Shown here in pieces: positions 1,382-62,148 of a stretch of DNA of 64,000 nt (the stretch's first letter is position 1; each line of letters starts with the position of its first letter). A model generated the notes under the pieces. That model was not told the origin of the DNA. It made no database searches and was given only the letters and a program-made list of their open reading frames with translations. The translations under genes and the position numbers were made by a program. Origin of the DNA: Stegostoma tigrinum (taxonomy: Eukaryota); assembly GCF_030684315.1 (NCBI RefSeq), contig NC_081362.1, forward strand, positions 79,441,018 through 79,505,017, given 5' to 3'.

Positions 1382-1959
1382 GTGATAATGGGAACTGCAG
1401 ATGCTGGAGAATCCATCATGTTCATCCTGGGCCTCCTGCAGTGCCACAATGATGCCACCCGAAGGTTGCAGGAACAACAACTCATATTCCGCTTGGGAAC
1501 CCTGCAGCCCAATGGTATCAATGTGGACTTCACCTGCTTCAAAATCTCCCCTTCCCCCACCGCATCCCAAAACCAGCCCAGTTCGTCCCCTCCCCCCACT
1601 GCATCCCAAAACCAGTCCAGCCTGTCTCTGCCTCCCTAACCTGTTCTTCCTCTCACCCATCGCTTCCTCCCACCCCAAGCCGCACCTCCATCTCCTACCT
1701 ACTAACCTCATCCCACCTCCTTGACCTGTCCGTCTTCCCTGGACTGACCTATCCCCTCCCTACCTCCCCACCTATAGTCTCCTTTCCACCTATCTTCTTT
1801 TCTCCATCTTTGGTCCGCCTCCCCCTCTCTCCCTATTTATTCCAGAACCCTCACCCCATCCCCCTCTCTGATGAAGGGTCTAGGCCCGAAATGTCAGCTT
1901 TTGTGCTCCTGAGATGCGGCTTGGCCTGCTGTGTTCATCCAGCCTCACATTTTATTATC
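1382..1959 (+). mobile_element. 5'-truncated Penelope-like element (family A): endonuclease C-terminus, pLTR and inverted pLTR tail at the left end
   Basis: MFILGLLQCHNDATRRLQEQQLIFRLGTLQPNGINVDF (PLE endonuclease end). Hammerhead 1868-1895 has GAAATGTC. Left end 1384-1415 is the reverse complement of the pLTR tail. TSD ttac(a/g)attaaggac at 1368-1381 and 1960-1973. Confidence 0.9.
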
Positions 1960-3604
1960 TTACGATTAAGGACATTAGTTTACATGTACTAATCATTAAT
2001 GATAAAGTCTTCGTGTGCAGGGCTAAATAAATGCCTAAATTTTTGCAACAATTTAAAAAAATACCCATCTCCATGATGTTGAGTAGCTTGAATTTCTTTG
2101 GTAAAGTGAATGATGCCCGTGGGATAGAGACCTTGACATGAAAGCATTGCTGGTTTGAGCCTACACATTGGAATCTAAGGAATGGAGGGAAATGCTTCCC
2201 TTTGCTTCTGAAATAAGACTTGCATCATCTATAGTTTCTATGGTGGCTAGGGATTGCATTGCATTTGAATTTGGAATTGTATATATTAATTGTGATCTTG
2301 GGATGTCGAAGAAAATGTGCTTTGTTACAAATTTAAGTGAGCATTCTTAGGAATTGAGGAAATTGTGGTGAGAGGAGAACAATATAAGGATAAAGCATTC
2401 CAAGTCTCCTACTTTCTTACTATTTAGGATCTAATATCAAGTACTGTAACAGTATTGAAATAACACTTTGGAATTTGTTGTTGATCAAAGACATGAGGGA
2501 AGGAGCCAATATTGTGTTTTCAATTTTGGAATTGAGAACTGCTGTTCCAATTTTGTTGTTTTAATTTCTAATGACATTTGTATAAGAAAAAGCATATTTG
2601 TGTTGTGAAGTCAATGCGGACTTAGTGTAAAAATGTGCATGACTGAAAAGTTCAGTTTCGTTCTGCCTGAAAAATGGCAGTTCCATTGTTGAAGTGCACA
2701 GTTCCATGTTACAGTATAATGTGATTTTATTTCACTTTAAGTGATCCAAGGAATAACTGACACAAAGTAAATGCATCTGATTCACGGGTATGGTCCGAAT
2801 CCTGCTGTTTGTAAGTTGTATGAAGAATTTTGTTGCCTGATGACATGCTGCGGTGTAGAATTGAACCGTTTAGGTTCAGATAAAGTTACGATTTTAAAAC
2901 AAGTCGTGAATTGTTTTAGCTACACCTATTATCGGGCAGGAAGCTGTGGATACTATGGGATGTTTGACTTCCATGTTGCAGTCTCATTTATTATTGGGTT
3001 TCCTTTCCTGGCAAGAGGATTTAGGATTGAAAGATGTCAAGATTTGGTCCTGCAATGACGCTTTTAAGGTCAGACTACCCACCAATGCATTGTTTGGGTT
3101 CACGTAGAATACAGATTACAAAAAACAACGTTAGGTAATTCTGCTATAATGCATGTTTTGTTAATGCAAATTGGCTGTAATGTGATTGATGAATAGTAGA
3201 CACTATTTAGATAACATGAACTTTCTACTGTACAGTATAAGAACTTTCTGTAGCAACTATGTTGCAAATTCCTATGTTTTTGTTTGTTCGAGATCGCAAA
3301 AAAACACAGCTGTCATGTTTTAGGTGAACTACCTGTAGCAGGCTGATGCCACTCATGAAACTACTGAACAAGTGTGACGATTGGTTCCAGGATGGTGGAA
3401 TGGACAATGCAAATTTCTTCATTTGCATATTGATTATTCGTAGGTGGGGAAGGAGGGAGAAAATTTTTGAAAGTCGAACTTGTACAAAAGATACTATAAA
3501 TTTTAAAAAAAGTTTTTTTTGTGGAAGTGGTCAAATCACAGCCAAGTCAATGCAGCAGATTAAGAGCTGGTACTGAAACTCTCTTGGGGCAGTGGATAAA
3601 TAGA

Positions 3605-3958
3605 TCATAAAATCCCATGGTATGGAATAAGTCTGTTCAGCCCATCGGGACCACACTGACATTCCAAACATGAATGCTGCTCAGATCCACCCCCCTTCCC
3701 TATCCCTATAACACTGCATTTCCCATGATTAATCCACCTACCCTGTGCATGCTTGGACACTAAGGACAATTTAGCATGGCCAATCCATCTAACCTGCCCA
3801 TCTTTGGACTGTGGGAGGAAACGAGAGCACACGGAAGAAACCCATGCAGACACAGGGAAAATGTGAAAGCTACACCCAGTTATCAGAGAGTACAATCAAA
3901 CTTTGATCCCTGATGCTGTGAGGCAGAAGCACTAACCACTGAGCCACCATGCTACCCC
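3605..3958 (-). mobile_element. HE1-like V-SINE (tRNA head, V-domain, HER1-like tail)
   Basis: Minus strand: ggtggctcagtggttagtgc A-box head, ctgtgtctgcatgggtttcttccgtgtgctctcgtttcctcccacagtccaaag V-domain, gggctgaacagacttattccatac tail. Confidence 0.8.
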
Positions 3959-5886
3959 AATCCTAATCTGAGTTCTAATTCTAATTCTAATACTAATCAG
4001 AGAGCCCTCAAATCTAATGGGAAGATTCGTTCATGTAAGAGGAGTGCCCCTCATGAAAAGAATGGAAAGAAATAGCCAGGTGCTGTTCTGTAATTGCAAG
4101 CTGGTTCTTTCCCAAGCTTGCTGCTCTTAGAATAGTTAGGAAGATCACAAGAGGCCTGGGGAAGAAACAGAGATTGCAAGCCTATGGGGAATGTATGGAG
4201 TTTGGGAGGTACTGTGGGACATCAGCGGGGGCAGATGGTGGTGTTGCCAACCAGAGAGTGTTGCAAGGAAGCTGAGGGGAGTTGGACTGGCTGCAAGGGA
4301 GTGGTGAGAAGAAAGTTGTTTTTTGTGATTGGGGAGGAAGGCTGCAAAGAAGGAAAGAAACTGACTACAAAGAGAGGACTGTGTCAAACGTTCATCAAAG
4401 AAACACTCAGCTACCCATGAACTTGTCAACTTAAACTCACTGTGGCAATGAATTACTTGCAGAGGAATTTAGAATCTGCAGGTTCAGGCTGGATGGGTAT
4501 GATAAGGAATTAGAATATGGGGGAAAAATATTGAATGCTGTATAATGAGCACTCTAACAATTTAAAATTTGTGGAATTTAAATCCACAGTTAATATCTGA
4601 GCTGCAATCTATTACAATAACTACCTTGTTAAAATATTCTAAGCTTGTAAACACATGATGAAAACATGCTAACTGTGACCTCATCAATCTGGAACGTGTG
4701 TTTAAAGTGATGGTTTTTCAGTGTAGAAGTGTGTGGCAATTATTTTGAGGGGAAAATCTGCTAATTTATGATTGTTGCCTTGTACCAAATTAAATACTGT
4801 CTAGGAAATTCATGCTTTCCTTTTGCTTTGTGGCTTTTAGTTTAATGAATAATTTGATGCTAAATGAGGTGAATGATAAATTCTTCTAAATTTCCTTCTG
4901 TGAGAGTCCAGTTGACCATGCATTGTCACAGACTGCATCACCTTTTAAAGGAGTTTACACAACTTTAAAAAGTAGATGCTAAAATCGAAAAATAGTCCTC
5001 TGGAAATTCTAGAAAGCAGCCTTTGGGGGAGAAAACGATTATTTTGTGCCCTATTAACAGGTATGACAGTGGTATATTTAATAGTTTAAGCTGTTTATCT
5101 TTAATCTGACTGGATACATTTTAATGAAATTAAGCATTTAATCCATTTGCATCATTTCTGTCTCTTTTAGACCATTGATTTTACTAAGTGTTATGACACT
5201 CTAATAGCAGACGATAGCCCTTTTTTGTGTAACATGAATCATAATTATAATTGCAGTTTTTTATTAGTGCCAATTTATTGGACTTTTGAGATATTCTGCT
5301 GGGGGATCAAGAGAATAACCTGCCCTAAAAGTTGCAAGCATGTGTATAACAATACAATCAATCTCATTTATAAATTAATGAAAACTGATACAGCAAACCT
5401 TTTATTAACCAGTACGTATGGGACCAAGAGTGTATCGGTTGATCAAATATTTAAGATAATCAAGCAGTCTGCGTAACCACGGTAAACCCTGTAAATACAA
5501 TTAAGTCACCACTGAATTCATATATTGTTGACTGCTGACTTGAATTAGTCAATTGGATACTTTTGACTCCAATTAGGATATGCCTTTTATGTGTTAGGGG
5601 AAATAAAAATATGATACACATGGCTGAGTGAGTGGTAGCTGTGGAAATAAAATTCAAGTTCAACTGAGTCTAATATTTATGTTGCTGATGAGCTAAAGTA
5701 GGAGTAAACATATTGTCACAATAGTCATAAAATGTGAACTGCCAATTTTGAACTTCCATCTTCTAATTCTATTACCTGAGAATTGCTGGGACTAAAATCT
5801 TCTTCTGTTTTTTAAAAGAAGAGAAAATCCTGACAACAGGTGGGACAGAGATTGCCTGACCAGCTTGAGCCAAGATTGTGAAATAG

Positions 5887-6747
5887 TGATAACACACTAT
5901 GGAGCTGGAGAAGCACAGCAGGCCAGGCAGCACCAAAGGAGCAGGAAAGTTGACGTTTCGTGTCAGGATCCTTCTTTAGAAATGAGAAGAGGTAAGGAAG
6001 GTGGGAAATAAATAGAGATGAATGGGTGGGGTTGTGGAAGGTGGGTGGGATGAGGGTTATAGGCGAGTGCAGGTAGGCAGTGGTTGGGATTGGTCAGTGG
6101 GATGGGAGGGACAGCAGGTGGGAGAGAAGATGGACAGGTTGTGTCAGTTCAAGGAGATGGGGATGAGAGGGAGACTTGGACATGGGATGAGGCCAGGAGT
6201 GAGAAGATTTTAAAACTGGTGAATTCCACACTTAAGCCATCAGGCTGTAGGCTCCCAAGACAGAATATGAGGCGCTGCTCCTCCAGTTTGTGGGTGGTGT
6301 CATTGTGACACTGGAGGAGGCCCAGGATGGACATGTCACCCAGTGAGTGGGAGGGGTAGTTAAAATGGTTGGTGACAGGAAGGTGTTGTTGTTTTGTTGC
6401 GTACAGAGCACTGATCCTCTGCAAAATTGTCTCCGAGTCTACACTTGTTCTCACCGATGTAGAGAAGGCCACATTGGGAGCAGTGGATAGATTAGACCAA
6501 GTTGACAAACATGCAGGTGAACCCCTGTCTGATATGGAAGGTTTGTTTTGTATCTTGAATGGAGCTGGGAGGGAAAGGCGTCAGGGCAGGCGTAGGACAT
6601 CCTGCGGCTGCAGGAAAAGGTGCCGGGGGTGGTGGGGTTAGTGCAGAGTCTGGAGCAGATGAGGGAATCATGGAGTGAGTGGTCCCCTTCATCTTCATAA
6701 TACTGTGTTGTCTTTGACTCCAACATCTGCAGTTCTTACTATCTCTC
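5887..6747 (-). mobile_element. Older PLE family A copy with GIY-YIG domain and inverted pLTR tail
   Basis: Minus strand encodes ..CSQCGLLYIGENKCRLGDNFAE.. and ..HLPVTNHFNYPSHSLGDMSILGLLQCHND... Reversed pLTR at ~5887-5980; forward pLTR tail (caacatctgcagttcttactatctc) at ~6700-6747. TSD is only degenerate. Confidence 0.85.
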
Positions 6748-6865
6748 AGTCTGAAACAGGGCCTGGTGATGCAAATTGGAGAAACATTCATTCAAGAAGA
6801 GCTTGAGGACACTTTCAGATTTGAGGATACAAGACTAAGGAAGGGCATAGAAAGGGTTAATGGTA

Positions 6866-7165: not shown

Positions 7166-7240
7166 AGATCTTAGTTAAGTAACTGTGGTCTTAGATTAAA
7201 AATACAGCACCTAAAGGACTCTAATAGAATAGATTAGGTT

Positions 7241-7432: not shown

Positions 7433-7771
7433 AATTATATATTTTAAACTGCACGTACTTGACCTTTCTTTTGTACCAAACAAATTCTCCTTTTTAAACT
7501 TTATGCCTGTGCTTCTGTGTGTGTACTTTGTCACATTTTGTTTTTTTTTTAGACTTGTTAGGTAATGAAATTCCCTCCATTTCACTCAAAAAAAACAATT
7601 TGCAGTTGGTGTATTAATTTTAACGAGTGCTATTTTAGTTGAAGTATCGTATGCTTGTATGCTGAAAAGAAGTGTTAAAAGTTTTTGTTGCAATTGATCA
7701 AGGAGGTAAGAGAACAGCGAGGAGAACCTGAAGCACGCACCTCACCTGGTTAAAACCATATCTGTTTAGAA

Positions 7772-9240
7772 GTGTTATGACCTCAGCAGATGTCATTACT
7801 GGGTAAGTCAGATCCCAGACTGTAATCTTGCGTGACAGATCATAACTTTTTATTTTACATAAGTGGTTCTTCACTGCAATACAAGCATGCAATGCTGCAG
7901 ATTTGGTTTTAACCGTAAAACTGAAGTTTATTATGCAGAAGAAATGAAGACAGAATAACCAAACTGTTTACAGAGAACCCACATTTTAAACCTTTCAAAA
8001 CACACAGTAAATTACAACTCTGTTAATCTGAACAACACTCCCTTATAGCAGCCTTCGAATGCTTTTTAGCCAACTTGAGCATTGTTCAATTTTTCTCTGA
8101 AATTTGAAACATAAAGCTTTACTTTATCAATTTCTGTGTCCTTTTAAATGTTGCTGTCACCTTATGTCCATATTAAGACTAAATGACTCATTTAGGAGCA
8201 ACTCTAGTGGTAAATTGCAACAAATGAAGTGGTTTCTGTTTTGTCATTGAAAAACAAGGTATCAAGTAATAGCACTAAGGTGTTGTTTCAGATTCAGCCT
8301 CTAGTAGGTTGGTATAATTCAATTAAATACAAATTTATTTGTTGCATCTCTGTTAAAGAAATGGGCTAAACATGTCAGCCTCATTCTTTTGCATTCATAA
8401 TTTGTTGTTAAATTTTAAAAATTATGTTTGAAACTAAATTTCCAAATCCTCTCCCAGTTTCATGGGACATTTAAATTACATTTTGTTTTAAATCATCCTC
8501 TGTTTATCTCGTCCTCCTTTTCTGTTTCAGATTTTGTTCACATTCTGCCCCTTCCCATTACTCTGTTTTTCTTTATCCTCGCTATCCCTTAACCTTTGTC
8601 TCTTCTAAGCATTTTTTTTTTCATTTCTAAGAAAAGCTTGACAAAGTCCAGCTGTGACATCACAATTTCAGGCTTCTATTGTTCCACTTCTAAATGTTGG
8701 ATAATCATTTGAACCATTTCATTTTTATGCCTTTAAACTTTTTACTTTTAAATTCACTTTATCTGCTAACTGTTTCTAGTTTTAGTCAGATTTCAAATAA
8801 GCCACTGTTTTATTTTCTGCTTCAAGTAAACTTTTGGCAGCATTCAAAGCCATCTTTAAATTTTGTTCAGTCAAGGTCAGTGCAATGTAGCTTTTAATAT
8901 CCGGAGCCAGTGTTTGTCCATTATTTTAGGAAGAAAGACACCTGTCTCTCTCAAATCCAGTAAATTCAAATCCAAATCCACCCAAAAGACCCTAATTGTT
9001 ATGATTACAGCTGATAATACAATGAGACCTGTGATGTGACAGATTGACATCGGCTTCAATAGATCGATTTGTCTTGTTAGATTTAATGAGTGATTTTTCG
9101 CTGGAATGCAGGCATGCAATACTGCAGATATATTTTTAACAGTTAACATAGAGGTTCATTATGGAAAAGAAATGGAGGTAAGATAGAACAAACCAAACTA
9201 GTTACAAATAACATGTTATATTTTGAAACCATTGTAAAGC
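7772..9240. repeat. Two diverged ~220 bp direct repeats (about 7772-8000 and 8997-9240), probable LTR remnants
   Basis: Both begin TGTTATGA and share gcatgcaat(g/a)ctgcagat...ttttaac...gtt(t/c)attatg.a.aagaaatg.ag...accaaact. Confidence 0.45.
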
Positions 9241-9774
9241 AAAATTGCATTAATCCAAATAGCATTCCTTTATAATACTCGCAACAGAGAGAATTCCATT
9301 CTCAATTGCACCTATTAGCCTTGATTTAATCCTGGCTTTAATTCTCAGCTTTAAGAATATGATAGCCTCTTCCTGCAGTCTTCATATAACTGAATTTAGA
9401 ACGTTCTAAGTTTTAAATAACTCTGTCAATGTTTTAACCAAACACTTCTGGTTTGGAACTTTTACTTTGGGTTTTTGTACTGAGATAACAACCTATTTTT
9501 AACTGTTCAAAACTACCTTTTTTTCTTCTAGAGTGACTGTTATGCTCACCCGGCTACAAGCCTTAACTAAAGGGGTTTTCTTCAAGAAATGAGTGTTTCT
9601 TCTAATAATAAAAAAATCCATGACCTTTCTGAACTGAAACCAAAGGCACAGCTATTTACTGTCTCTGCTCATAAAACTCACCTATAATAGTGTTAGGGTT
9701 TCTAAAACCCTATTAGCCTCTAAGAATTGTCTCTCCCATTTTGCTTTCTGAAAGAAATCATCATGGCTACAGAA

Positions 9775-11675: not shown

Positions 11676-11677
11676 AC

Positions 11678-11960: not shown

Positions 11961-11964
11961 AAAC

Positions 11965-15134: not shown

Positions 15135-15347
15135 AGATAATGGGAACTGCAGATGCTGGAGAATCCAAGATAATGAAATGTGAGGCTGGATGAACACAGC
15201 AGGCCAAGCAGCATCTCAGGAGCACAGAAGCTGATGTTTCGGGCCTAGAGTTCATCTGATGAAGGGTCTAGGCCCGAAACGTCAGCTTCAGTGCTCCTGA
15301 GATGCTGCTTGGCCTGCTGTGTTCATCCAGCCTCACATTTTGTTATC
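15135..15347. mobile_element. Fold-back (inverted pLTR) PLE-derived unit with an intact + strand hammerhead at 15256-15283
   Basis: Reversed pLTR joined head-to-head to a forward pLTR at the ribozyme core; TSD aaatatt(t/a)aaggcag at 15120-15134 and 15348-15362. Confidence 0.9.
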
Positions 15348-15519: not shown

Positions 15520-17560
15520 CCATAAGACCATCAGATGTAGGAGCAGAATTAAACCATCAAGTCTGCTCTGCCATCCAATCATGGCTGGTAAGATTCTCAA
15601 CCCCATTCTCCTGTCTTTTTCCTACAGCCCTTGATCCCCTTACTAATTAAGAACGAATATATCCCTTAACAATAGTCACTATCTTGGACTGCTCAGCCTT
15701 CTGTGGCAATGAATTGCACAGATTGATCACTTCTGGGTGAAGAAATTCCTCCTCAATCAGAGTTATCAAGGGTCGTGTATTCACTCTAAGGCTGTGTCTT
15801 TGGCACTCTAAGGCTTGGTCCCAGTCCCTCTTACTAGTGGAAACATCATCTTCTCCATGTCCACTCTTTACCAGCCTCTTCGTATTTTGTAAGTTTCAAT
15901 GAGATCTCCCTCCTACATTTCACTGAGTACAAACCCAGCATCTTCAACTGCTTCTTATATGATAAACCCTTCATTCCTAGGATCGTTCTTGTGAACATCC
16001 TGTGCCCTCTTCAATGCGCTCATATCCTTGCTTAGGGAGCAAAACTGCTTGTAATATCCCAAATGCAGTCAGATCCTGACCCTTTATACAGCCTCAATAG
16101 TACATCCCTGTGCTTGTATTCTCGCCTTCATGAAATGAATGCTAACATTGTATTTGCCTTCCTAACTGCCACATGAGCCCGCATGGCAATCTTAAGAGAA
16201 TCCTGAACTAGGATTCTCAAGTCTTTGTGCTTCAAATTTCTGAAGCCTTTCCCCATTTGAAAATAGACTACACGTCTATTCTTTCTACCAAAGTGTCTAA
16301 CATCACACTTTCCCATATGGTATTCCATCGACCATTTCTTTGCCCACTGTTCTAGTCTTTGTCCAAGTGCTTCAGCAGCTTCCCTGCTTCCTCAATGCGA
16401 ATTGCCTCTCCACCTATGTGTATGTCTTCTGATAACGTAGCAACAATGCTCTTAGTTCCTTCATCTAGATCATGAATGCATTACAGGAATAGTTGTGGTC
16501 CCAACATTGATCCTGTGTGGAACTCCACGAGCTATTGTCCTGAAGAAGACACCTTATTCCCACTCACAGCCTTCTGCCAGTCAGTCAATCATGTATCAAT
16601 GCCAGTATCTTACCCCTAACACCGTAGGATCTTATCTTATTTTGCAACCTCCTGTGCATTTTGTGAGAGGCCTTCTGGAAATCCAAATAAGTTACATCCA
16701 TTGGCTCTCCTTTGTATAACTTACTCATTACCTCCTCAAATAATTTTAACAGATTTGTCAGGCATGACCTCCCCTTGACAAAGCATTGTTGACAGCCCTA
16801 TATTACTATGCGCTTCCAATCTCATCCTTAATAATGGACCCTAAAATTTTACTAATTACTGAGATCAGGCTACCTGACCTATAATTTCCTGTCTTCTACG
16901 TCTACTTCTCTCATTTATTTAACAGGGGTGTTATATTAGCCATTTTCCAGTCCTCTAGGACCCTCCCTGAGTTTCTGAAAGATCACCACCAATGTCTTCT
17001 TGGCTATCTCCTTCAGAACTCTGAGGTATAGTTGATTGGTCCTGGTGACTAGTCTACCTTAAGACTTTTGAGCTTTCCCAGAACCTTCTCCTTGGTGACG
17101 GCCACTACATTCACCTCCATCCTGACTCTTTTTGAAGTAGTAGAATGCAATTGGTGTCTTCCACTATGGAGATTGATGCAAAATAACTATTCATATCCTC
17201 TCCATTTCTTTGTTCCCCATTACTGCTTCTCCAGCCTAATTTTCCAGCTGTGAAATGCTTACTGTCACTTCTCTCTATTACCGTTTATAGCTCTAAAAAA
17301 TGCTTGTGCAGTCTTCTGTATTATAGCTATCTTACCCCTGTTTTCCATCTTCTCCCCCATTATTACTTTTTTTTAAGTTGTCCTCTGCTGACTTTTAAAG
17401 GTTTCCAAATTCCCTGGACTCCTAGTAATCTTCACATTTGTATGCTTTTTCTTGCTTTTATGCTGTCCCTGACTTCCCTAGTCAACCATGGTTGCCTTAT
17501 CGTCTCTTAGTATGCTCTTGCTTGAGGTGAATTTCAACTGAGCATCCCGGATTACCCCCA
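15520..17560 (-). mobile_element. Decayed CR1 LINE ORF2
   Basis: Minus-strand remnants such as MEYHMGKCDVRHFGRKN...VRKANTMLAFIS; same family as 43793-47770, with cataagaccatcagatgtaggagcagaatta at the tail end. Confidence 0.85.
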
Positions 17561-23991: not shown

Positions 23992-24184
23992 TGAGTGATA
24001 GTAAGAATTGTTGATGCTGCAGCCAGAGATAACATAGTGTGGAGCAGGAGGAGCACAGCAGGCCAGGCAGCATCAGAGGAGCAGGAAAATTGACATTTTG
24101 GGTCGGGACCCAAACGTCAACTTTACTGCTTCTCTGATGCTGCCTGGCCTGCTGTGCTCCTCCAGCTCCACACTGCGTTATCTA
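23992..24184. mobile_element. Older fold-back PLE pLTR unit
   Basis: Imperfect inverted arms around ttttgggtcgggacccaaacgtc; TSD tatctacttgc at 23981-23991 and 24185-24195. Confidence 0.85.
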
Positions 24185-29816: not shown

Positions 29817-30025
29817 TGTGAGGCTGGATGAACACAGCAGGCCAAGCAGCATCTCAGGAGCACAAAAGCTGACGTTTCGGGCCTAGACCCTTCATCATCT
29901 GATGAAGGGTCTAGGCCCGAAACGTCAGCTTTTGTGCTCCTGAGATGCTGCTTGGCCTGCTGTGTTCATCCAGCCTCACATCTTATTATCTTGGAATCTC
30001 CAGCATCTGCAGTTCCCATTATCTC
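29817..30025. mobile_element. Young fold-back PLE pLTR unit with perfect 84-bp arms and an intact hammerhead at 29899-29926
   Basis: 29814-29897 is the exact reverse complement of 29900-29983 with a 2-nt spacer; perfect TSD tgtaaaaatagaga at 29803-29816 and 30026-30039. Confidence 0.93.
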
Positions 30026-33379: not shown

Positions 33380-33607
33380 GATCAGAGATAATGGGAACTG
33401 CAGATGCTGGAGAATCCAAGATAACAAAGTGTGGGCCTAGATGAACACAGCAGGCCAAGCAGCATCTCAGGAGCACAAAAGCTGATGTTTCGGGCCACGC
33501 CCTTTGTCAGAAAAAAAGAGGATTGAAGGGTCTAGGCCTGAAACCTTAGATTTTGTGCTCCTGAGATGCTGCTTGGCCTGATGTGTTCATCCAGCCACAC
33601 ACTTTGA
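33380..33607. mobile_element. Fold-back PLE pLTR unit flanked by an inverted 16-bp duplication
   Basis: Reversed pLTR plus forward pLTR; tggttcttaatgttgt at 33364-33379 is the exact reverse complement of 33608-33623. Confidence 0.85.
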
Positions 33608-34435
33608 ACAACATTAAGAACCAAGATAACAGAGTTTAAAATAGTCACGACCTGTACTTTTGCTGTAAGTTGTTTTAAGAAAGTTAAATGTAAAAGTTTT
33701 TGTTTACTTCCTTTTGTCATTGTGAATTCCTGTTTTTATCCCTGCACTTGCCAAACTTGTCATGACCAGACCCCAGATAAGGATCATAATTCTTTACATT
33801 TCCAGACGCAATATGCCAACCTATTGAGCTCCTGGGTGATGAGGGATGAACCAGCTCCCTTTTTATTCACCTACCCCTCAGTTAGTCATGACAAAGTTAA
33901 TTTAGAAAGGTTCCTTTCTCTTGTGGGCATCTTTCTTCCCAACCCAAATAATCTTGTGTTTTAATAGGAGTCAATGTCCCAGGCTTTCCTGAATTAACAA
34001 AGTGTGAGATTAGTAAATACTAAATATGAGAAGAATCAGTATAGACTAGAAATGAGAGTCCAAGAAGATAAAAGTTTAAAAACTCTGATATATTGATCAT
34101 GAAGAGTGTGTTTTTGAATATTGCAGCCATTGCGATGAAGGGTAACCGGTAGTTTGGATACCTTTCACTTTGGTTGAATTCTCGCATTCAGGATACAGGA
34201 GAGTGCTTTGTTATCCTGTTTCCTTTTTTACCGATTTTTAGCAGTGTTATAGAGGGTCTTTACTCGCAGCACAGGCAACTAGGGGAAAATTCTTTAACTG
34301 TTACCTTCATGCTAATACAAACCTTAGCCTAATACGTGTAAGAGCATTCAATCCCACCAACTCAGTGTAGTAACTGTCTTTTTAATCTCTGTCCTTGTGC
34401 ATTCTTCAAAGTGAAAACATCAAATATGCATGTAG

Positions 34436-34533
34436 AGATAACGAGGTGTAGAGCTGGATGAACACAACAGGCCAAGCAGCATCAGAGGAGCAGGAAAGCT
34501 GATGTTTTGGGCCTAGACCCTCCTTCAGAAAAG
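34436..34533 (-). mobile_element. Solo PLE pLTR fragment with degenerate hammerhead
   Basis: Reversed pLTR ending gcctagaccctccttcagaa; TSD aaa(t/c)atgc(a/g)tgtag at 34422-34435 and 34534-34547. Confidence 0.8.
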
Positions 34534-34696
34534 AAACATGCGTGTAGTTTGGGACAAAATCCAAAAGGGGTGGATTTTAGTTGAACGGTGTTTTGTCAGC
34601 TCCTTACTATCTCAGTAGTCACAGGAGATTACGGTCCAGTTTGTTTGAAATTTTTTTGATCTCTTTTAAACGTTGTATCCTATGTTCAAAGGACAC

Positions 34697-34769
34697 AAGA
34701 TAATAAAATGTGAGGCTGGATGAACACAGCAGGCCCAGCAGCATCTCAGGAGCACAAAAGCTGACGTTC
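34697..34769 (-). mobile_element. Solo PLE pLTR fragment
   Basis: aagataataaaatgtgaggctggatgaacacagcagg..gagcacaaaagctgacgtt; stops a few nt past the predicted cleavage site. Confidence 0.8.
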
Positions 34770-36515: not shown

Positions 36516-36519
36516 CTTT

Positions 36520-37900: not shown

Positions 37901-38835
37901 AGTTCAATATTTTAAGTGTTGCTCTGTACAATCCAACAAAAGTTAGCTAATTATTTGTAGACAGAGGGGGAGAGACATATTCGATTGAATTTATTTAGTA
38001 CAATTCAGATATTTACCCTTGATTATTAGCGGATCCCTGCTTTTCATTTTGTAATGCACTGTTCCAAGACACATCTTATAAAGTATTTACAGTGTAGGAA
38101 CAGCTATTCAGCTTCACAGGCTCATGTCTGTCGTTTCTACATTTCATACAAACCTCTCATACTCCTTTCTGTCAGTAGATTCTTCTCTGCTTTTTTTTCC
38201 CTTGCACTTATCCACATGAATATATCTCTGGTCTTAGCCTTGACTCTTATCTGTGGAGCTAAGTCCCAAATTTTAAACACCTTTTTTGATAAAGAATTTT
38301 CTCCTTAATTCGCTATTGCATTTATTAAAGACAACTTTATTTATGGCATCTCATACTCTTTAACCTACAGAGAAAATTAGAATATTTTCCAATATCCATC
38401 TTTTCAAATCTTGTCAGATCATCCTGCAGTCTTCATTTCTCAAGGAAACAACCCAGCCCATTTTAATCTTTCCTGGCATTTGCAACTTATAAATTCTTCA
38501 TATTATGTTGGTAAATCACTGTATAGTTTCTCTTAAGCTTTATCTTTTTTAAAAAATAATTTTGGGGACCAAAACATGAGCCTCTGCATTTTGTGCAATC
38601 CACCACTGTGCACTATTGTCCCCTGACAGTGGAGCAAATCAGTGATAGTTATTTTGATCAAGCTTTTTGGATGTGTTTTGACAGATCTCTGTGGCCAGTG
38701 GGACTTGAACTTGAACCAGTGGCCCAGAGGTATGGGAGCACACCACTAACTATAGAAGAGATTTAACAAATTATATTTATTGTTGGACAGGGCAGCTTTG
38801 TAAAGATGATGAAATCCCAATTTACACTTTTCTTA

Positions 38836-38916
38836 GATGACAAGGTGTAGAGCTGGCTGAACACAGCAGGCCAAACAGCATCAGAGCAGCAGGAAAGCTG
38901 ACATTTCGGGTCTAGA
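38836..38916 (-). mobile_element. Older pLTR fragment interrupted within its hammerhead by a younger PLE; it resumes at 40206-40230
   Basis: ...gctgacatttcgggtctaga | insertion | atttcaggtcgagacacttcttca restores gacgtttcgggtctagacccttcttca. Confidence 0.7.
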
Positions 38917-40205
38917 TAATGGGAACTTCAGATGCTGGAGAATCCGAGATAACAAAGTGTGAAGCTGGATGAACGCAGCAGGCCAAGCAGCATCTTACGA
39001 GCACAAAAGCTGACGTTTCAGGCCTCGACCCGTCATCGGAGAAGGTTCTGAAATAAATAGGGAGGGAGGGGGAGGCGGACCGAAGATGGATAGAGGAGAA
39101 GATAGGTGGAGAGGAGACTACAGGTGGGGAGGTAGGGTGGGGATAGGTCAGTCTGAGGAGGATGGACAGGTCAAGGAGGCGGGATGAGGTTATTAGGTGG
39201 GAAATGGAGGTGCGGCCTGAGGTGGGAGGAAGGGATGGGTGAGAGGAAGGACAGGTTAGGGAGGCGGTGACAAGCTGGGCTGGTTTTGGGATGCAGTGGG
39301 GGAAGGGGAGATTTTGAAGCTTGTGATGTCCACATTGATACCATTGGGCTGCAGGGTTCCCAAGCGGAATATGAGTTGCTGTTCCTGCAACCTTCGGGTG
39401 GCATCATTATGGCACTGCAGAAGACCCAGATGGACATGTCGCCTAAGGAATGGGAGGGTGAGTTAAAATAGTTCACGACTGGGAGGTGCAGTTGTTTATT
39501 GCGAACAGCGCGGAGGTGTTCTGCAAAGCAGTCCCCAAGCCCCCCCAAAGTGTAGCACTTCCTGCGGTTGCAGGGGAAGGTGCTGGGTGTGGTGGGGTTG
39601 GAGGGGAGTGTGGAGCGGACAAGGAAGCCCCGGAGACAGTGGTCTGTCTGGAAGGCAGACAAGGGTGGGGATGGAAAAATGTCTTTAGTGGTGGAGTTGG
39701 GTTGTAGATGGTGGAACTGTTGGAGGATGATGCGTTGTATCTGGAGGTTGCTGGGGTGGTATGTGAGGACGAGGGGGATTCTGTTTTGGCGGTTATTGCA
39801 GGGGCGGGGTGTGAGGGATGTTTTGCAGGAAATGCAGGAGACACGGTCGAGGGTGTTCTCAACCACTGCGGGGGGGACATTACAGTCCTTGAAGAACGCG
39901 GACATCTGGGATGTGCGGGAGTGGATTGCCTCATCCTGGAAGCAGATGCGGCAGAGGCGAAGGAATTGGGAATAGGAGATGTAATTTTTGCAGGAGTGTG
40001 GTTGGGAGGAGGTGTATTCTAGGTGGCTGTGGGAGTCGGTGGGCTTGAAATGGGCATCAGTTTCACCTCCCCCTCCCCTACCTATTTATTTCAGAACCCT
40101 CTCCCCATCCGCCTCTCTGATGAAGGCTGTGGGCCCGAAACATCAGCTTTTGTGCTCCTGAGATGCTGCTTGGCCTGCTGTGTTCATCCAGCTTCACACT
40201 TTGTT
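38917..40205 (-). mobile_element. PLE family A copy (Neptune-like Cys linker) with an internal deletion of the GIY-YIG core and an inverted pLTR at the right end
   Basis: ORF 39171-39905: RIPLVLTYHP..PCNRRKCYT|LG..DCFAEHLR..HLPVVNYFNSPSHSL. Forward pLTR at ~40055-40205 with hammerhead 40117-40144. TSD atttc(g/a)ggtc(t/g)aga at 38903-38916 and 40206-40219. Confidence 0.9.
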
Positions 40206-40999
40206 ATTTCAGGTCGAGACACTTCTTCACGGGAGAAAAAAAATTCACACAAGTTTCTTAGTACTTTTGTTACCTCCAAAAAAAAATGGATACCATAGAC
40301 GAAAGGGAAAGAACTGATTCATCTTGGTCTGGAAGAAAGTATTTTTCCAATTATTCTTGTATATTCACATTGGGGTTTAATCAGCCTTTCTCCCAGGACA
40401 GCAGAAAAAGTACAGAAATAGTAATAATTGTAATCACAGCATGTACAATTATACTTGTTGCATATTGGATACAGACGCAATACGGATCCTTGTTACTGAC
40501 CAATTTATGTGGAACCAATTATAAAATTTGACGGAAGTCTTGGATGTGACGTAGATTGCATAAATTTGCACTTAGAACGACATCAGTTCTGATATACACA
40601 TGGATTCCATGCTTGGCTAGTGTAGAAATTATAGTTTAAGAAAATATTTCCATAAATTATATAATTGACCAGTTTTGACTGGTATATGGCTGGAAAACGT
40701 TGTACTGTATAAATGGGTGTTCTTTCATGGTAATGGAAAAGCATTCAGTTCAGTATTTGACATAATTTTGATCTCCTGAAGCAGGAGAAGTGTGTTATTT
40801 GGAAAAAATCAAAGTGGATTTCTTACCCTGTTGAAGGCAGCAAAGAAAACCACTAAGTTCAGCAAGGCCAGATGCTCAAACCTATTTCTATTAATTATAC
40901 GAGATAACTTGAAGCAGAAAAGTGTAATCCCATTGAGAAGCGCTATGTGCATACACAGTTTATATTTAGAGGAATTAAATTAGTTGCCTTCATTAAAAC

Positions 41000-41919: not shown

Positions 41920-42089
41920 AGGTGTAGAGCTGGATGAACACAGCAGGCCAAGCAGCATCACAGGAGCGGGAAGGCTGACGTTTCGTCAGGCTGCCTGCTC
42001 CTCTGTTGTTACTTGGCCTGTTATGTTCGTCAGCTGTACACCTTCTTATCTCAGATTCTCCATCATCTGCAGTTCCTACTATCTCTGAA
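41920..42089. mobile_element. Older fold-back PLE pLTR unit
   Basis: Arms meet at gctgacgtttcgtcagg; TSD atgat(t/g)catagaca at 41906-41919 and 42090-42103. Confidence 0.85.
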
Positions 42090-43113: not shown

Positions 43114-43329
43114 ATAACAAGGTGCAGAGCTGGATGAACACAGCAGGCCAAGCAGCATCGTAGGAGAAGGAAGGCTGACGTTTCGGGCCTAGACCCTTCT
43201 TCAGATGAAGGTCTAGGCCCGAAACATCAGCCTTCCTGCTCCTGAGATGCTGCTTGGCCTGCTGTGTTCATCCAGCTCCACACTTTGGTATCTCGGATTC
43301 TCCAGCGTCTGCAGTTCCCATTATCTCTG
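43114..43329. mobile_element. Fold-back PLE pLTR unit with an intact minus-strand hammerhead at 43177-43204
   Basis: Minus strand reads CTGAAGA-A-GGGTCTAGGCCC-GAAA-CGTC; TSD att(a/g)cattctgtg at 43101-43113 and 43330-43342. Confidence 0.9.
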
Positions 43330-54339: not shown

Positions 54340-57300
54340 AGAACTGAGCAATTCAACACATTGCTGGAAACCTGGTATAGGAAGGAAGATGCCAGATTTC
54401 TGAGGCATTGGGACTATTCTGTGACAAGATGGGAAGGTTGTGTCTTGGTAGGGATTGGGCTAATATCTTCACAGGGAATTTTATTGGGAAGATTTTGGCA
54501 GATTGACAGTAGGGTTGGGAAGCTACGAGAGACCTCAGATTCCAAAGAAGCAAAAGTGGTACGAGGCTGTAGAAAAGTAGTCGGCAAAAATGGAAGACCG
54601 ATAAAGCATCAAATAGGAACAAAATAGAGAACAATATAATAATTAAAGACTCTCTGTCTGAGTGTGTGTTTCATTCATAAAAGGTTGATTATTTGATGGA
54701 CAAGTTGATGCAGATTTATATGCTTTAATTGCCATTAGAGATATAGCTGTGTGGTGACCGAATTGGGAACTGGGTATCCATGGACATTTAAGAGCAATAG
54801 ATGAATAGGAAAAGGAGATGGGATATCATTGCCATTAAGAGATGACGTCAGTGTTTAAGTAAAAAAGGATTTTTGATTGAAGGATCAAGTTGTTCAATCA
54901 ATTTAGGTGAAATTAAGTAACAACAAGGGAAGCAAATATTGGTAATTGTTTAGATAACTCCACACTTTAGTAGTAATGTTGGTTATGCTGTAAATCAGGG
55001 AATTAGAGATGCATGGAACATTGGTAATGCAGAATAATGGGTAACATCAATCTGCAAATAAGCTGAATAACAAATTCAGCACTGAAGTTGTGGAGAATAG
55101 CTCCTGTTGTGTACAAGAAATGGGTTTCTGAAAGTCTGTGTTGAGAAGGCAACTAGGGACTGGGCTATTTTCAATTCAGTGTTGTGTAATGAGAAAAGGT
55201 TAGTTGTGAACCTTTTTGTAAAGAAACCTTTTGGGAAATATCACTGTAATACGATAGAATGTTAAAAGAAGTTTGAATGTAAATTAGTTCACGGTTCAAA
55301 TTTGGGTTATCAACATTCTGAGATTAGGGTCTTAAATCGGATCAAAGGAAGCTATGAAGATAGAAACTATATGATGGTTAAGTTCACTGTGGTGTATTGA
55401 AAAAACACCATTGTAGACCATGTAGTACTAAAGAAATACTACAAGGCCTACAACAGATGTATATTCTTCTTGGGAACAAACACCCAAAGGTAAAAGTGAT
55501 CAACCATGATTAATGGAAGAACTTAGAGATAGCAAAATGACAGGGAAAGGGGCCTATAAGAATGCCAGAAATAGTGGTAAGCTTGAGAATTTGGCGCAAT
55601 TTAGGACCCAGCAAAGGAGCGCCAAGAAACTGATATGGGAAAGAAAAAGAAAATATGAATACAAACTAATGAGGTGTCTAAAGATGGGCTTTATAAAGCT
55701 TCTATCAATATGTGAAAGGAAAAAGATTAGCAAGAATAAATGTGGGCCCATTACAGGTTGAGACAGGAGAACTTAGAGCTTGGAACAGGGAAATTGCAGG
55801 GAAACTAAACAGTTACTTTGCATTGGTCTTCGTAGAAAAGATATGAATGAATGATTTATTTATTGTCACTGGCATTTTACAGTGAATAATACAATAAAAA
55901 TACAGATACAGAAAACCTCTGAGATCCCAGGTGATCAAGAGACTTGTGAAGAACTAAAAGAATTTAGCTTTAATAAAGTGCTAATCCTGTAAAAATTAAC
56001 CGATTTGAGGCTTGACCCTAGATGAGCTTCAGTCCAAAGTGTTAAAAGAAGTAGCAGTAGATATAATGGATGCATAGGTGGTTATCTTTGGTATTTCTGT
56101 GTACAGTGGCATGTTCTTGCTAATTGGAAACTGGCAAACGTAACTGCCATTTAAAAATTGAGGAAGAGGGAGAGTGAAACCTTACAAACTTATTATCTTT
56201 ACATCTACACTGGGGGAAATGTTAGAATATATTGCAGAGGGTATGATAACTTAATGTTAGAAAAGGATAGAAAAATTGGGCAGAATCAACGTAGATTTCT
56301 AAAGGGAAAATGGTGCTTAAAAACTTGGAGTTTTTTTTTCCAAAGGATAGTACTTGTAGCATAAACAAAAGGGTCAGAGTGAATATAGAACATAGAACAT
56401 AGAACAGTACAGCACAGAACAGGCCCTTCAGCCCACGATGTTGTGCCGACCATTGATCCTCATGTATGCACCCTCAAATTTCTGTGACCATATGCATGTC
56501 CAGCAGTCTCTTAAAATGTCCCCTATGACCTTGTATCCACAACTGCTGCTGGCAACACATTCCATGCTCTCACAACTCTCTGTGTAAAGAACCCGCCTCT
56601 GACATCCCCTCTATACTTTCCTCCAACCAGCTTAAAACTATGACCCCTCATGTTAGCCATTTCTGCCCTGGGAAATAGTCTCTGGCTATCAACTCTATCT
56701 ATGCCTCTCATTATCTTGTATACCTCAATTAGGTCCCCTCTCTTCCTCCTTTTCTCCAATGAAAAAAGTCCGAGCTCAGTCAACCTGTCTTCATAAGATA
56801 AGCCCTCCAGTCTAGGCAGCATCCTGGTAAACCTCCTCTGAACCCCCTCCAAAGCATCCACATCTTTCCTATAATAGGGCGACCAGAACTGGACGCAGTA
56901 TTCCAAGTGCAGTCTAACCAAAGTTTTATAGAGCTGCAACAAGATCTCACGACTCTTAAACTCAATCCCCCTGCTAATGAAAGCCAAAAGACCGTATGCT
57001 TTCTTAACAACCCTGTCCACTTGGGTGGCCATTTTAAGGGATCTATGTATCTGCACACCAAGATCCCTCTGTTCCTCCACACTGCCAAGAATTCTATCCT
57101 TAATCCTGTACTCAGCTTTCAAATTCGACCTTCCAAAATGCATCACCTCGCATTTATCCAGGTTGAACTCCATCTGCCAACTCTCAGCCCATCTCTGCAT
57201 CCTGTCAATGTCCCACTGCAGCCTACAACAGCCCTCTATACTGTCAACAACACCTCCAACCTTCGTGTCATCTGCAAACTTGCTGACCCATCCTTCAATC

Positions 57301-59860
57301 CCCTCATCCAAGTCATTAATAAATATTACAAACAGTAGAGGCCCAATGACAGAGCCCTGTGGAACACCACTCACCACTGACTTCCAGGCAGAATATTTTC
57401 CTTCTACTACCACTTGCTGTCTTCTGTTGGCCAGCCAATTCTGTATCCAGACAGCTAAGTTCCCCTGTATCCCATTCCTCCTGACCTTCTGAATGAACCT
57501 ACCATGGGGAACCTTATCAAATGCCTTACTGAAGTTCATATACACCACATCCACAGCTCGACCCTCATCAACTTTTCTAGTCACATCCTCAAAGAACTCG
57601 GTAAGGTTTGTGAGGCATGACCTGCCCCTCACAAAGCCATGTTGACTGCATTTAATCAAGCCATGCTCTTCCAGATGGTCATAAATACTATCCCTCAGAA
57701 TCCTTTCTAACACCTTGCAGACGACAGACGTGAGACTTACTGGTCTGTAATTGCCGGGGATTTCCCTATTTCCTTTCTTGAAGAGAGGAATTACATTTGC
57801 CTCTCTCTAGTCCTCAGGTACGACTCCAGTGGAGAGCAAGGATGCAAAGATCTTTGCAAGTGGCAAAGCAATTGCATTTCTCGTTTCCCAAAGCAGCCGA
57901 GGACAAATCTGGTCCGGGCCTGGCGACTTGTCAATCTTAATGTTTGACAAGATTTTCAGCACATCAGCTTCCTCTATCTCTATCCATTCCAGCATGCACA
58001 CCTGCTCTTTAAAGGTTTCATTCACTACAAAGTTTGTTTCTTTCCTAAAGACAGAAGCAAAAAACTCATTTAGGGCTTCCCCTACCACCTCAGACTCCAC
58101 ACACAAGTTCCCTATGCTATCCCTGATTGGCCCTACTCTTTCTTTGACCATTCTCTTACTCCTCACATAAGTGTAAAATGCCTTTGTGTTCTCCCTAATC
58201 CATTCTGCCAAGCCTTTCTTGTGCCCCCTCCTGGCTCTCCTCAGTCCATTTTTGAGCTCCTTCCTCGCCTGCCTGTAATCCTCTAGAGCTGAGCTTGGCC
58301 CTAGCTTCCTCCACCTTATGTAAGCTACCTTCTTCCTTTTGACGAGAAGCTCCACCGCTCTTGTCATCCAAGGTTCCTTTCTGTTACCCCTTCTTGCCTG
58401 TCTCAGAGGGACATATTTATTCATCACTCACAACAACTGTACCTTAAACAGTCTCCACATGTCTATAGTGCCTTTACCATGGAACAATTGCTCCCAGTCC
58501 ATGCTTCCTAACTCATGTCTAATCGCAGCATAGTTTCCTCTTCCCCAATTAAATATCCTCCCATTTTGCCTAATCCTCTCCTTCTCCATAGCTATGTAGA
58601 ATGTGAGGCAGTTATGGTCACTATCACCAAAATGCTCTCCCACCGCAAGATCTGATACCTGCCCCGGCTCATTTCCGAGCACCAAGTCTAGAATGGCCTC
58701 TCCCCTCGTCGGCCTGTCAATGTACTGAGTTAGGAAACCCTCCTGAACACACCTTACAAAAACAGCTCCATTCAAATCTTCTGCTCGAAGGAGGTTCCAA
58801 TCAATATTGGGAAAGTTAAAGTCACCCATTACAACAACCCTACTATGTCCGCACTTTTCCAAAATCTGCCGACCTATGCTTTCTTCAATCTCCCTGCTGT
58901 TATTGGGGGGCCTGTAGTAAACCCCTAATGAGGTGACTACTCCCTTGCTGACACGGTAGGCAGATCTTCCTTGACAATGGAAGCAACGTGGTGTATTTTC
59001 AGAATTTTTAAAAACTGTCCATCTGAGGAAGGAGGTGAGTTAACAAAATGAGAGTACATGCATGGGGGAAATATGTAAGCATGGATTAGTTCAAGGAAGA
59101 AATAAAGGGATCATTAACAAATGACAGGTTGTTACTAATAAGGTACTGCAGGAGTCGCTGCTAGGTTCACAACAAATTATGATGATTTGGGTGTGTGGGC
59201 TAACAGTAATACTTCCAAATTTGTTGTTGGCACCAAGCTGGAGAAGAATATAAGTTAAGAGGTTAGTGCAAGGAGGATTTGGGCAGGTTAAGTAAATGGA
59301 CTTGAACATTACAGATAGATTATGATGTAAATTAGTGTAGTGCTTGGGTAGAAAAAAACAGAAGGGCAGAATGTTCATTTAATGGTGAAAGGCTGGAAAT
59401 TGTAGGTATACGAGTGATCTTCGTGTTCATGTCCATGAGTCAGTAAAAGTTAATAGGTAAGTACAGCAAACAATACGTTGCCATTAGTTTCAGGGGGATT
59501 TGAGTACAGAAGTAAAGATGTCTTGCTGCAGTTCTGTAGAACATTGCTGTGACTTGACCTGGATTATTGTCTACCGCTTTGACCTCCTTGTTGAACGAGG
59601 GATATACCTGCCTTGAAGGACTGCAATAGACGTTTACCAGATTAATCACTAAAATAGTGGAATTGTTTTATGTTGAGAGATTGAGGGAACTGGATTTGGA
59701 TTCCTTAGAGTTTTGAAGAATGAGAGGAGATCTTGTTGAAATTTACAAAATTCTTACAGAGCATGACAGTCTCTATATAGATGTTTCTCCTGACTGGTGA
59801 CTATAGAACCAGGGGATGTAATCTCAGGATAAGGAGCACGCCATTTAAGACTGAGCTTAT
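54340..59860 (+). mobile_element. Old, heavily decayed CR1 LINE split by a younger HER1 insertion
   Basis: ORF1 esterase remnant (LETWYRKEDARFLRHWDY), then endonuclease/RT remnants (AYKNARNSGK.E, QNQRRFLKGKWCL), resuming after ~58985 (gtggtgtattttcaga..., FTRLI). Confidence 0.75.
56388..58950 (-). mobile_element. Young 5'-truncated HER1/CR1 LINE with near-intact ORF2 (endonuclease C-terminus and RT)
   Basis: ORFs 58428-58862, 57807-58427 and 56523-57713 are in one frame separated by two stops. Motifs: GDFNFPNIDW, LDLVL, GDSDH, KSPGPD, QHGFVRGRSCLTNL, SGVPQGSVIGPLLF, FADDTK. Tail (tagaaca)n. Confidence 0.96.
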
Positions 59861-59864
59861 GTAC

Positions 59865-62148
59865 CATAGAACATCGGACAGTACAGCACAGTACAGGCCC
59901 TTTGGCCCACTGTGTTGTGCCGAACTTTTACCCTAATCCTAAGTTCTATCTAACCTCCACGTCTACCTTTAAACTATCATCCATATGCCTATCTAGCAGC
60001 TGCTTAAATGCCCCTAATGAGGCCAACTCCGCTACCCTCTCCGGCAATGCATTCCATGCCCTGACCCCTCTGAGTAAAGAACCTACCTCTGACGTCTCCC
60101 CTATATCTACCTCCACTCACTTTAAAACTATGTCTCCTTGTAATAGCTACCTCCACCCTAGGGAAAAGTCTCTGGCTGTCCACTCTATCTATACCTCTGA
60201 TCATTTTGTACACCTCTATCAGATCACCTCTCATCCTTCGTCGTTCTAAGGAGAAGAGCCGTAGCGCTCTCAACCTTTCTTCGTAAGACCTTCCATCCAT
60301 TCCAGGCAATATCCTGATAAATCTCCTCTGCACCTTTTCCAATGCTTCCACATCTTTCCTGTAATGAGGCAACTAGAACTGGACACAGTACTCCAGATGT
60401 AGTTGCACTGGGCTTTCGTATAGCTGGAGTATAACTTCATGGCTCTTGAACTCAATCCCTCTATTAATGAAAGCTGACACACCATATGTCTTCTTAACAG
60501 CTCTATCCACCAGGGTAATAAAATGTGAGGCTGGATGAACACAGCAGGCCAAGCAGCATCTCAGGAGCACAAAAGCTTTTGTGCTCCTGAGATGCTGCTT
60601 GGCCTGCTGTGTTCATCCAGCCTCACATTTTATTATCTTGGAATCTCCAGCATCTGCAGTTCCCATTATCTCTGATACTATTTTAACCTCACTGCGAAGC
60701 CTCTTCCAGGGATGCCTAACCTGAAGAAGTTACCAGCTTTTGTGCTCCTGAGATGCTGCTTGGCCTGCTGTGTTCATCCAGCCTCACATTTTATTATCTT
60801 GGAATCTCCAGCATCTGCAGTTCCCATTATCTCTGATACTATCCACCAGGGTGACAGCTTTCAAGGAACTGTGGACATGAACCCCAAGATCCCTCTGCTC
60901 CTCCTCACTGCCAAGAATTTTTCTGTTAACCCTGTATTCTGCTTTCAAGTTTGTCTTTCCAGAATGAATCACCTCACACTTTTCAGGGTTAAACTCCATT
61001 TACCACTCCTCAGCCCAGCTCTGCATCCTATCAATGTCCCTTTGTAACCTAGAACAGCCCTGTGCACTGTCCACAATGCAACCCACCTTTGTATCGTCCA
61101 CGAACTTGCTAAACCACTCTTCCACTCCTTCATCTAAATCATTTACAACAATCACAAATAGAAGAGAACCCAGATGAGATCCTTGTGGTACACCACTTGT
61201 AACTGAGCACCATGTTGAATATTTTCCGTCCACTACCAGCCTTTGATTTCTAAGGGTCAGCTAATTCTGAATCTAATCTACCACATTTCCCCCTATGCCA
61301 TGCCTCCTTACCTTCTGCATGAGCCTACCATGGGGAACCTTATCAAACACCTTACTTAAAACCATGTATACCACATCCACTGCTCTACCTTCATCCATGT
61401 GTTTGGTCACCCCTTCGAAGAATTCAGTAAGGTTTGTGAGGCATGAGCTACCCCTCACAAATCCATGCTGACTATCACGAATCAAACTGTGCCTTTCCAA
61501 GTGATCGTAAATCCTATCTCTCAGAACCCTTTCCAACAATTTGCCCACCTCTGACGTAAGACTATCTGGCGTGTAATTTCCAGGGTTATCCCTTTTCCCT
61601 TTTTTGAACAAGGAAATGACGTTTGCCTCTCTCTCCAATCGTCCGGCACTATACCTGTGGACAGTGAGGATGAAAAGATCATCGCCAAAGGCCCTGCGAT
61701 CTCTTCCCTTGCTTCCCATAGAATCCTTGGATAAATCCCATCAGGCCCTGGGGGATTTATCTATCTTCAAGTTCCTCAAAATTTCTAGCACACCTTCCTT
61801 ACTAACATCGACCTCCTCTATCCTACGAGCCTGAGCCTGCCAAAGAAAAGCATTCGTTAAGGACCTTTCCTTTCTCTTCAGGTTCTGTGCACAAATTCTT
61901 TTTACAGTCCTTGATCAACCCCACCCTTTCTCTGGTCATTCTTTTATTCCTCATGTACATGTAAAAAGCCTTAGGGTTTTCCTTGATCCTATCTGTCAAG
62001 GTTTTCTTATGTCCCCTTATAGCTCTCCTAAGCCCTTTCTTCAGCTCCTTCCTGGATAATTTGTATCCCTCTAGAGCCTTTTCCGTTCCTTGTTTTCTCA
62101 ACCTGACATCGGCATCTTTCTTCCTCTCAACCAGTTGTTCGACCTCTG
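59865..62148 (-). mobile_element. HER1/CR1 LINE ORF2 fragment with a nested PLE unit and an internal deletion near 61830
   Basis: QHGFVRGSSCLTNLTEFF, SGVPQGSHLGSLLF, FVDDTK, PHYRKDVEALEKVQRRF; tail at 59865-59920. Confidence 0.92.
60517..60838. mobile_element. Tripartite PLE pLTR insertion (one inverted and two tandem forward copies) lacking the hammerhead core
   Basis: Perfect TSD ctatccaccagggt at 60503-60516 and 60839-60852; segments 60517-60577 (reversed), 60574-60734 and 60735-60838. Confidence 0.93.

Follow-up and report, generated by a model that had tools for sequence, protein, structure and literature searches.

The DNA examined here is a 64,000-nt stretch of the Stegostoma tigrinum genome (C11:79,441,018-79,505,017; hereafter the window), and the features at issue are insertions of a repeat whose motifs mark it as a Neptune-type Penelope-like element (PLE) encoding a reverse transcriptase (RT) and a GIY-YIG endonuclease (EN). 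Positions on its pseudo-long terminal repeat (pLTR) are numbered from the predicted hammerhead ribozyme cut, +1 being the A of the AGC that follows GTC; upstream numbers include a 0. Two copies of the motif TTATCT sit at +60-65 and +93-98, the positions given in an initial annotation of the window. That annotation also described ten insertions as each joining a short end to a long end, and this held for 10/10: in all of them the left arm is inverted and the right arm direct, both facing outward, with one short end (+54 to +67) and one long end (+98 to ~+105). Counts over the 3.2-Gb genome revealed the same pairing, which suggests an insertion process that starts at two fixed RNA sites. An automatic test for target site duplications (TSDs) was passed by 7/10 of the insertions (those at 1382, 15135, 23992, 29817, 41920, 43114 and 60517), with TSDs of 11-15 bp.

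The two-armed insertion at 1382..1959 combines a tail-only long arm on the minus strand (1382-1415, +66..+99) with a right part that holds the 3' end of an open reading frame (ORF) and the pLTR and stops at the short site (+64 to +66), all within a 14-bp TSD. As had been described, its left piece begins where the right end stops. A minimal hammerhead motif (CTGATGA, A, stem II, GAAA, then (C/T)GTC) lies at 1867..1895 on the plus strand, with cleavage predicted before 1896 (+1). Short left and long right ends were seen in the old insertion at 5887..6746, whose TSD has decayed (9/13 by eye), in the young palindrome at 29817..30025 (L016), which stops at +54 on the left and has a 14-bp TSD, and in the insertions at 41920..42089 (14-bp TSD), 43114..43329 (13-bp TSD) and 60517..60838 (14-bp TSD). 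The arms of the last join at AGCT (+1, 60574-60577), and its right arm reads to +161 and restarts at ~+1. Long left and short right ends were seen in the palindrome at 15135..15347, where both arms stop at -28 (15-bp TSD), in a palindrome of an older subfamily at 23992..24184 (11-bp TSD), at 33381..33629 (15-bp TSD, by eye) and at 38914..40207, where the long arm carries the 3' part of the ORF on the minus strand and the short arm lies to the right (13-bp TSD with 2 mismatches, by eye). A later 23-bp micro-inversion at 33607-33629 has turned around both the short end and the right-hand TSD copy in the 33381..33629 insertion, so that its flanks resemble an inverted duplication. The insertion at 38914..40207 landed within an older pLTR arm (38835-38927), doubling the hammerhead stem II sequence.

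Full-length copies elsewhere in the genome have a 3,609-nt unit and a 1,072-aa ORF with its ATG near +140. The short and long end sites are thus both within the 5' untranslated region (UTR), and arms bearing ORF sequence must therefore derive from tandem or circular RNA. In the copy L221, the 1,072-aa ORF matched RVT_1 (E 2.9e-5) and GIY-YIG (E 0.0039), both under the Pfam cut-offs, and showed DKG, YIDD and VVY..YIG motifs. A CCHH zinc-finger feature has its two Cys between GIY and YIG (VVYCIHCTRCGFLYIG), with His residues after; the available text of PMC8557442 uses this placement to define endonuclease-bearing (EN+) PLEs. The RT-EN linker, CNRRKCYTC, fits CX2-5CxxC (as CX4CX2C), a pattern that in the same text marks Neptune or Nematis, and the linker sequence accordingly marks this element as one of the two. 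L221 comprises a 555-nt direct repeat, the 3,609-nt unit, an inverted copy and a 34-nt tail, consistent with a pLTR that arises from a partial tandem; its two full-length inverted units are 99.945% identical and lie within one TSD, with a short left and a long right end. Several copies among L221-L240 keep intact ORFs of ~1,070-1,100 aa with variable Thr/Pro-rich minisatellite repeats, and since these ORFs are uninterrupted the family is young. The minimal hammerhead (CTGANGA, an unpaired A, stem II, GAAAC-GTC), with descriptor features following those in the accessible part of PMC4209133, was present in 12/14 aligned rows, the other 2 being misplaced. An Rfam scan returned no hammerhead family, its sole matches being miRNA-type hairpins below threshold, and a homolog search with the N-terminal 180 residues returned none.

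To measure end pairing beyond the window, close head-to-head pairs were counted over the whole genome by an exact pattern, which covers only young, short pairs and which tail variants escape. The tail signature was carried by the right arm in 5,734 and the left arm in 5,642 of 17,717 pairs. It was on both arms (long+long) in 86, compared with 1,826 expected under independence, a 21-fold depletion. The 6,427 pairs without a tail call are not counts of short+short: all 15 palindromes chosen regardless of their ends were short+long, and the 7/15 of these that lacked a pattern tail call all had a long end. In 864 kb of unselected DNA, 47 of 48 TSD-bounded pairs were short+long; the 48th was borderline, and short by its TSD (false-TSD rate, 29/10,389). 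Over all loci, selected sets included, 97/98 simple TSD-bounded pairs were short+long, at sizes from 170 bp to 7.8 kb. True short+short pairs numbered 0/48 in the unselected DNA and 0/98 over all loci. Neither short+short nor long+long pairs, which the initial annotation had named as grounds for abandoning its model if common, were frequent in these counts. When 15 long+long pattern matches were examined, at least 5 were internal arms of compound insertions with short+long outer ends, one was a true long+long pair with a TSD, and most others had no TSD. The ends are zones, not points: the short end fell at 58-66 in 59/65 and the long end at 96-112. TSDs measured 14-16 bp in 55/65, with an overall range of 11-19 bp. 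In two sets of loci (L071/L083 and L238/L239) both the insertion and its flanks are the same, probably through segmental duplication or as unplaced haplotypes; such duplicates were filtered out by TSD before end zones, TSD lengths and the 96 unique pairs described below were counted.

We then examined how the two arms relate. Among the 96 unique pairs, the short arm reached >5 nt further upstream in 37 and the long arm in 26, while inner ends lay within 5 nt in 33. A fold-back route, with one cDNA (complementary DNA) self-priming at its truncation point and being copied back to end 34 nt short, would suit these 33 near-perfect palindromes as well as near-identical arms such as those of L221, and self-priming was proposed in the accessible portion of PMC3846280. 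However, the long arm always holds the tail, which excludes fold-back for the 37 pairs with a longer short arm. Of 30 loci selected because their long arm was short, 11 had a tail-only arm, a short partner and a TSD, as does the insertion at window position 1382, and tail-only arms joined to short arms form 824 such joins genome-wide. Because the 37/96 pairs and 11/30 tail-only loci each hold unmatched sequence, neither arm was copied from the other. Junctions also mostly lacked a loop, with an overlap of 1-8 nt in 54/96 and filler in 25/96. On this sequence evidence fold-back is already refuted as a general route, and we regard it as very improbable. The claim that each target strand primes once, at one of two distinct internal RNA sites, gains support from the same 37 pairs and 11 loci.

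Copying of the pairing as a whole was also considered. A non-autonomous family resembling miniature inverted-repeat transposable elements (MITEs), spread from a few short+long masters, would inherit the pairing and would explain both the ~17,700 similar short palindromes and the hot spot near -28 common to copies. However, inner junctions vary by copy and the insertions span 100 bp to 7.8 kb; each end shifts over several bases and shows microhomology to the target; and pairing is kept across subfamilies 82-100% alike and in a sibling family. We give this explanation almost no credence. A MITE or DNA transposon was likewise rejected on the ends unequal by 34 nt, the variable centres and the 11-19-bp TSDs.

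The target flank was symmetric, with A found at -7 in 65% and 70% and at -3 in 60% and 56%, over a background of 29%. The arms are oriented as expected if cDNA synthesis began at each outer end, with one target strand as primer. Microhomology at the ends averaged 1.8 nt per end, compared with 0.5 in shuffles, a null that counts one side only (a fair null would be ~1); one short-end value was a 14-nt outlier. Pairing between primer and RNA would amount to 1-3 nt at most. We favor, at a probability of roughly 70%, a reading in which each arm ends at a different one of two fixed RNA positions, with a protein dimer nicking both strands and each 3' end priming one RNA at its own site. The dimer would cut the two target strands ~14 bp apart, with one protomer at a site near +64 and the other near +99; because each protomer would occupy one site, the sites would be mutually exclusive. 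Both cDNAs would extend toward the RNA 5' end, often halting at the same place, which would be the zone around -20 to -33, position +1 where the RNA was ribozyme-cut, or a point kilobases upstream on tandem read-through RNA. Their 3' ends would be united via short homology or filler, each cDNA likely templating the second strand of the other. One-armed copies would form when only one end was extended.

Another route to unequal ends begins with both strands priming at the long site, or in one region, followed by EN resolution or trimming that makes the short end. It predicts one long and one short end, and EN resolution is suggested as the origin of the tail in the text available from PMC8557442. 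We find this unlikely, though, as the short end adjoins an intact TSD of the same length class, which trimming would not leave without a second priming event. Short-only one-armed copies with TSDs also exist, and in vitro the RT of Poseidon, another PLE, starts at both sites (PMC11167929, accessible sections).

To assess the proposed dimer, the N-terminal 175 aa were modelled as a homodimer, with a score of 0.43 (best control 0.00) and a predicted local distance difference test value of at least 63. The mark for this score was reached by 17/29 eukaryotic pairs (animals 7/16) and by 0/30 single chains, and the prediction may stem from model memory. The model supports a helical homodimer formed by these residues, with binding itself being predicted.

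Inner ends and sequence variants suggest a single template for both arms. Inner ends within 5 nt (33/96) compared with a shuffle mean of 10.6; far upstream of the hot spots, inner ends within 20 nt were seen in 8/33 (shuffle mean 0.8); and 11 rare non-CpG variants were common to both arms (shuffle mean 0.4). One RNA template for both arms is favored by these matches. The alternative is twin priming on two RNAs, or on two pLTRs within a single tandem transcript, where an asymmetric dimer would pick one site each. Two RNAs would explain an arm overlap of 60-3,600 nt without strand displacement, as well as the long arms that outrun the short arm in 26/96 pairs and the very different inner ends of many pairs. 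The coinciding inner ends far from hot spots and the shared rare variants argue against it, and two equal RNAs would require an extra asymmetry for the sites to exclude each other. We consider two templates possible but doubtful.

Several observations weigh against priming of one RNA by a dimer at two exclusive sites. Overlap of the arms means that one template needs strand displacement or a tandem transcript, and the 26/96 pairs with the further-reaching long arm mean that there is no strict leader-follower order. Rare variants confined to one arm numbered 92. As for those common to both, the inverted repeats may have exchanged them by gene conversion, or two RNAs may have come from a single locus. 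A collision between the long cDNA and the short-site primer was rejected, as long arms showed a weak pile-up at the short site (36 compared with 22 and 21 per nine-base bin, among 100 matches listed, by eye). L186 is a genuine long+long copy with a TSD, and partner arms end at ~+14 in L100, +20 in L257 and +36-42 in L105. One of three homodimer runs scored 0.00, and the runs had at least 0% of their contacts in common. The start site did not differ between strands in the part of PMC11167929 available, a result compatible with the favored reading, though strands were unpaired there. All ends, moreover, were read from genomic scars. One-armed copies are also common: 800 kb of unselected DNA held 49 two-armed and 90 one-armed chains (41 short, 49 long), the 90 being an upper bound that includes broken chains and sibling families, and 10 young one-armed copies carry a TSD. 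The statement that each insertion is two-ended is thus too sweeping, in the window as well. Four or five one-armed pieces absent from the initial annotation lie there, among them those at 45..223 (plus strand, with an end near the short site; it may run off the window start), 34435..34530 (minus, short end, with neither partner nor TSD found), 34696..34768 (minus, short end, no partner found) and 38835..38916 (minus), the older short-ended arm that was the target of the 38914 insertion.

The initial annotation placed the template start at the ribozyme cut, which is not supported as a general rule but appears to apply to a minority. Both arms lay wholly downstream of +1 in only 14/97 pairs, and the main stop zone was at -20 to -33, so ribozyme-cut RNA is not the usual template. 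However, perfect palindromes centered on AGCT at +1 numbered 595, compared with 39, 21 and 123 at three other palindromic 4-mers (5-28 times commoner), and hammerhead-cleaved RNA appears from this enrichment to be sometimes copied in vivo, in a minority of insertions. A TATTTAT precedes the main stop zone (-28 to -33) by ~30 nt, in the region ~5115-5147 of L221 and ~1833-1865 of the window. The stop zone may be the transcript start or, alternatively, a purine-rich stall of the cDNA. The pLTR RNA folded no more stably than shuffles (z 1.66 and -0.03), and no structure is therefore claimed for the two end sites. Internal tandem restarts were seen at 60574-60842, in L090 (4626-6123) and in L022 (808-1904), as read-through to +161 followed by ~+1 or as 247-nt head-to-tail mini-units on both arms. 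These point to template jumping or to small RNAs that are circular or retrozyme-like.

A sibling family that also carries a hammerhead and has T-rich ends (L011, L040, L049, L067, L119, L127, L152) shows the same two end zones at the same spacing, with TSDs of 11-14 bp. TSDs bounded 7/9 of its head-to-head pairs, and 7/7 of those were short+long. Its ends read GTTTTTG and GGTTTTT, so that TTATCT, taken previously to define the sites, is ruled out as their determinant. In both families a box resembling CCAGC precedes each end by ~15-22 nt. In the insertions of the main element the duplicated CCAGC box sits ~17-20 nt upstream of the ends; it is a better candidate signal than TTATCT, and we infer that it positions the enzyme. 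A broader proposal would be that PLEs integrate chiefly by programmed twin priming: a dimer on one RNA at two CCAGC modules, a protomer per strand of a symmetric 14-bp staggered cut, and cDNAs as mutual second-strand templates, the genome also recording hammerhead-cut RNA as template. We hold this to be somewhat more probable than its negation. If true, mutual templating removes the need for a separate second-strand step.

Other features were also observed. Remnants of CR1-type long interspersed nuclear elements with RT and AP endonuclease domains lie in the window at 15520-17504, 43794-45825, 56391-59039 and 59865-62077. At L072, positions 7455-9413 (minus strand) hold a 653-aa single-exon host ORF with a signal-peptide-like start, presumably a protein resembling a leucine-rich repeat membrane protein.

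Known systems share parts of this behavior. EN+ PLEs are described with inverted pLTRs and a one-sided 30-40 nt tail, in Pen2a_Av (PMC3846280) and as a general scheme (PMC8557442); in the available portions of both, the tail is optional and ascribed to EN resolution or self-priming. Here, by contrast, one-each pairing was counted at genome scale (~99% of two-armed copies) and fold-back was excluded, and TSDs are ~14 bp compared with the 8-10 bp given for Adineta in those portions. The initial annotation cited internal initiation in a PLE but understated the prior art: for Poseidon PAc of Anolis, the accessible sections of PMC11167929 report that RT starts in vitro at two adjacent internal sites, which lie downstream of the hammerhead and bound the tail, that nicking and extension affect both strands, that a dimer is predicted via an N-terminal helix, and that ribozyme cleavage is not required. 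Our element appears to share the two adjacent internal starts, the nicking and extension of both strands, the predicted N-terminal dimer and the dispensable ribozyme cleavage. It differs in its Neptune-type linker and in having the sites in the 5' UTR (ATG near +140) and not the ORF. Within those sections, the two strands were not paired, start sites were not tied to inverted copies, and no RNA ends were found at the ribozyme cut, whereas +1-centered palindromes are enriched 5-28-fold here.

In L1 twin priming (Ostertag and Kazazian 2001, as relayed in the available text of PMC12016303), a poly(A) start and a variable internal start are used in ~20% of insertions, with ~12 bp of overlap. Similarly, both target strands appear to prime here, and opposed cDNAs are joined by short homology within one TSD. 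Unlike L1, there is no poly(A), both starts are internal, fixed and 34 nt apart, either arm may be the longer one, and the overlap between arms can reach a full unit. The copies show what characterizes twin priming, opposed cDNAs in one TSD with neither derived from the other, and on the sequence record insertion works like twin priming, though not in its L1 form. No published statement of strict one-each pairing or of fixed-site twin priming for PLEs was found in the searches made; a model of this kind may be given in Arkhipova 2006, Evgen'ev and Arkhipova 2005 or Pyatkov 2004. Already in print are the architecture, a one-sided tail on inverted pLTRs, and the two start sites. What is added here is that pairing is near-absolute, that fold-back can be excluded, that the geometry does not depend on TTATCT and that a +1 class exists; together these give the known pieces the form of a mechanism open to testing.

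The origin of PLE inverted copies, of the one-sided tail and of the second strand is called open in the accessible parts of PMC8557442 and PMC11167929. The scars connect the pair of starts seen in vitro with the two strands of the target, and they supply numbers for an in vitro assay: one site per strand, a stagger of ~14 bp, a symmetric target and matched 5' stops. A two-ended insertion reaction that begins at fixed internal sites would be relevant to retrotransposon-based gene writing. It also accounts for a large class of 'MITE-like' shark palindromes, which would be misassigned by annotation tools.

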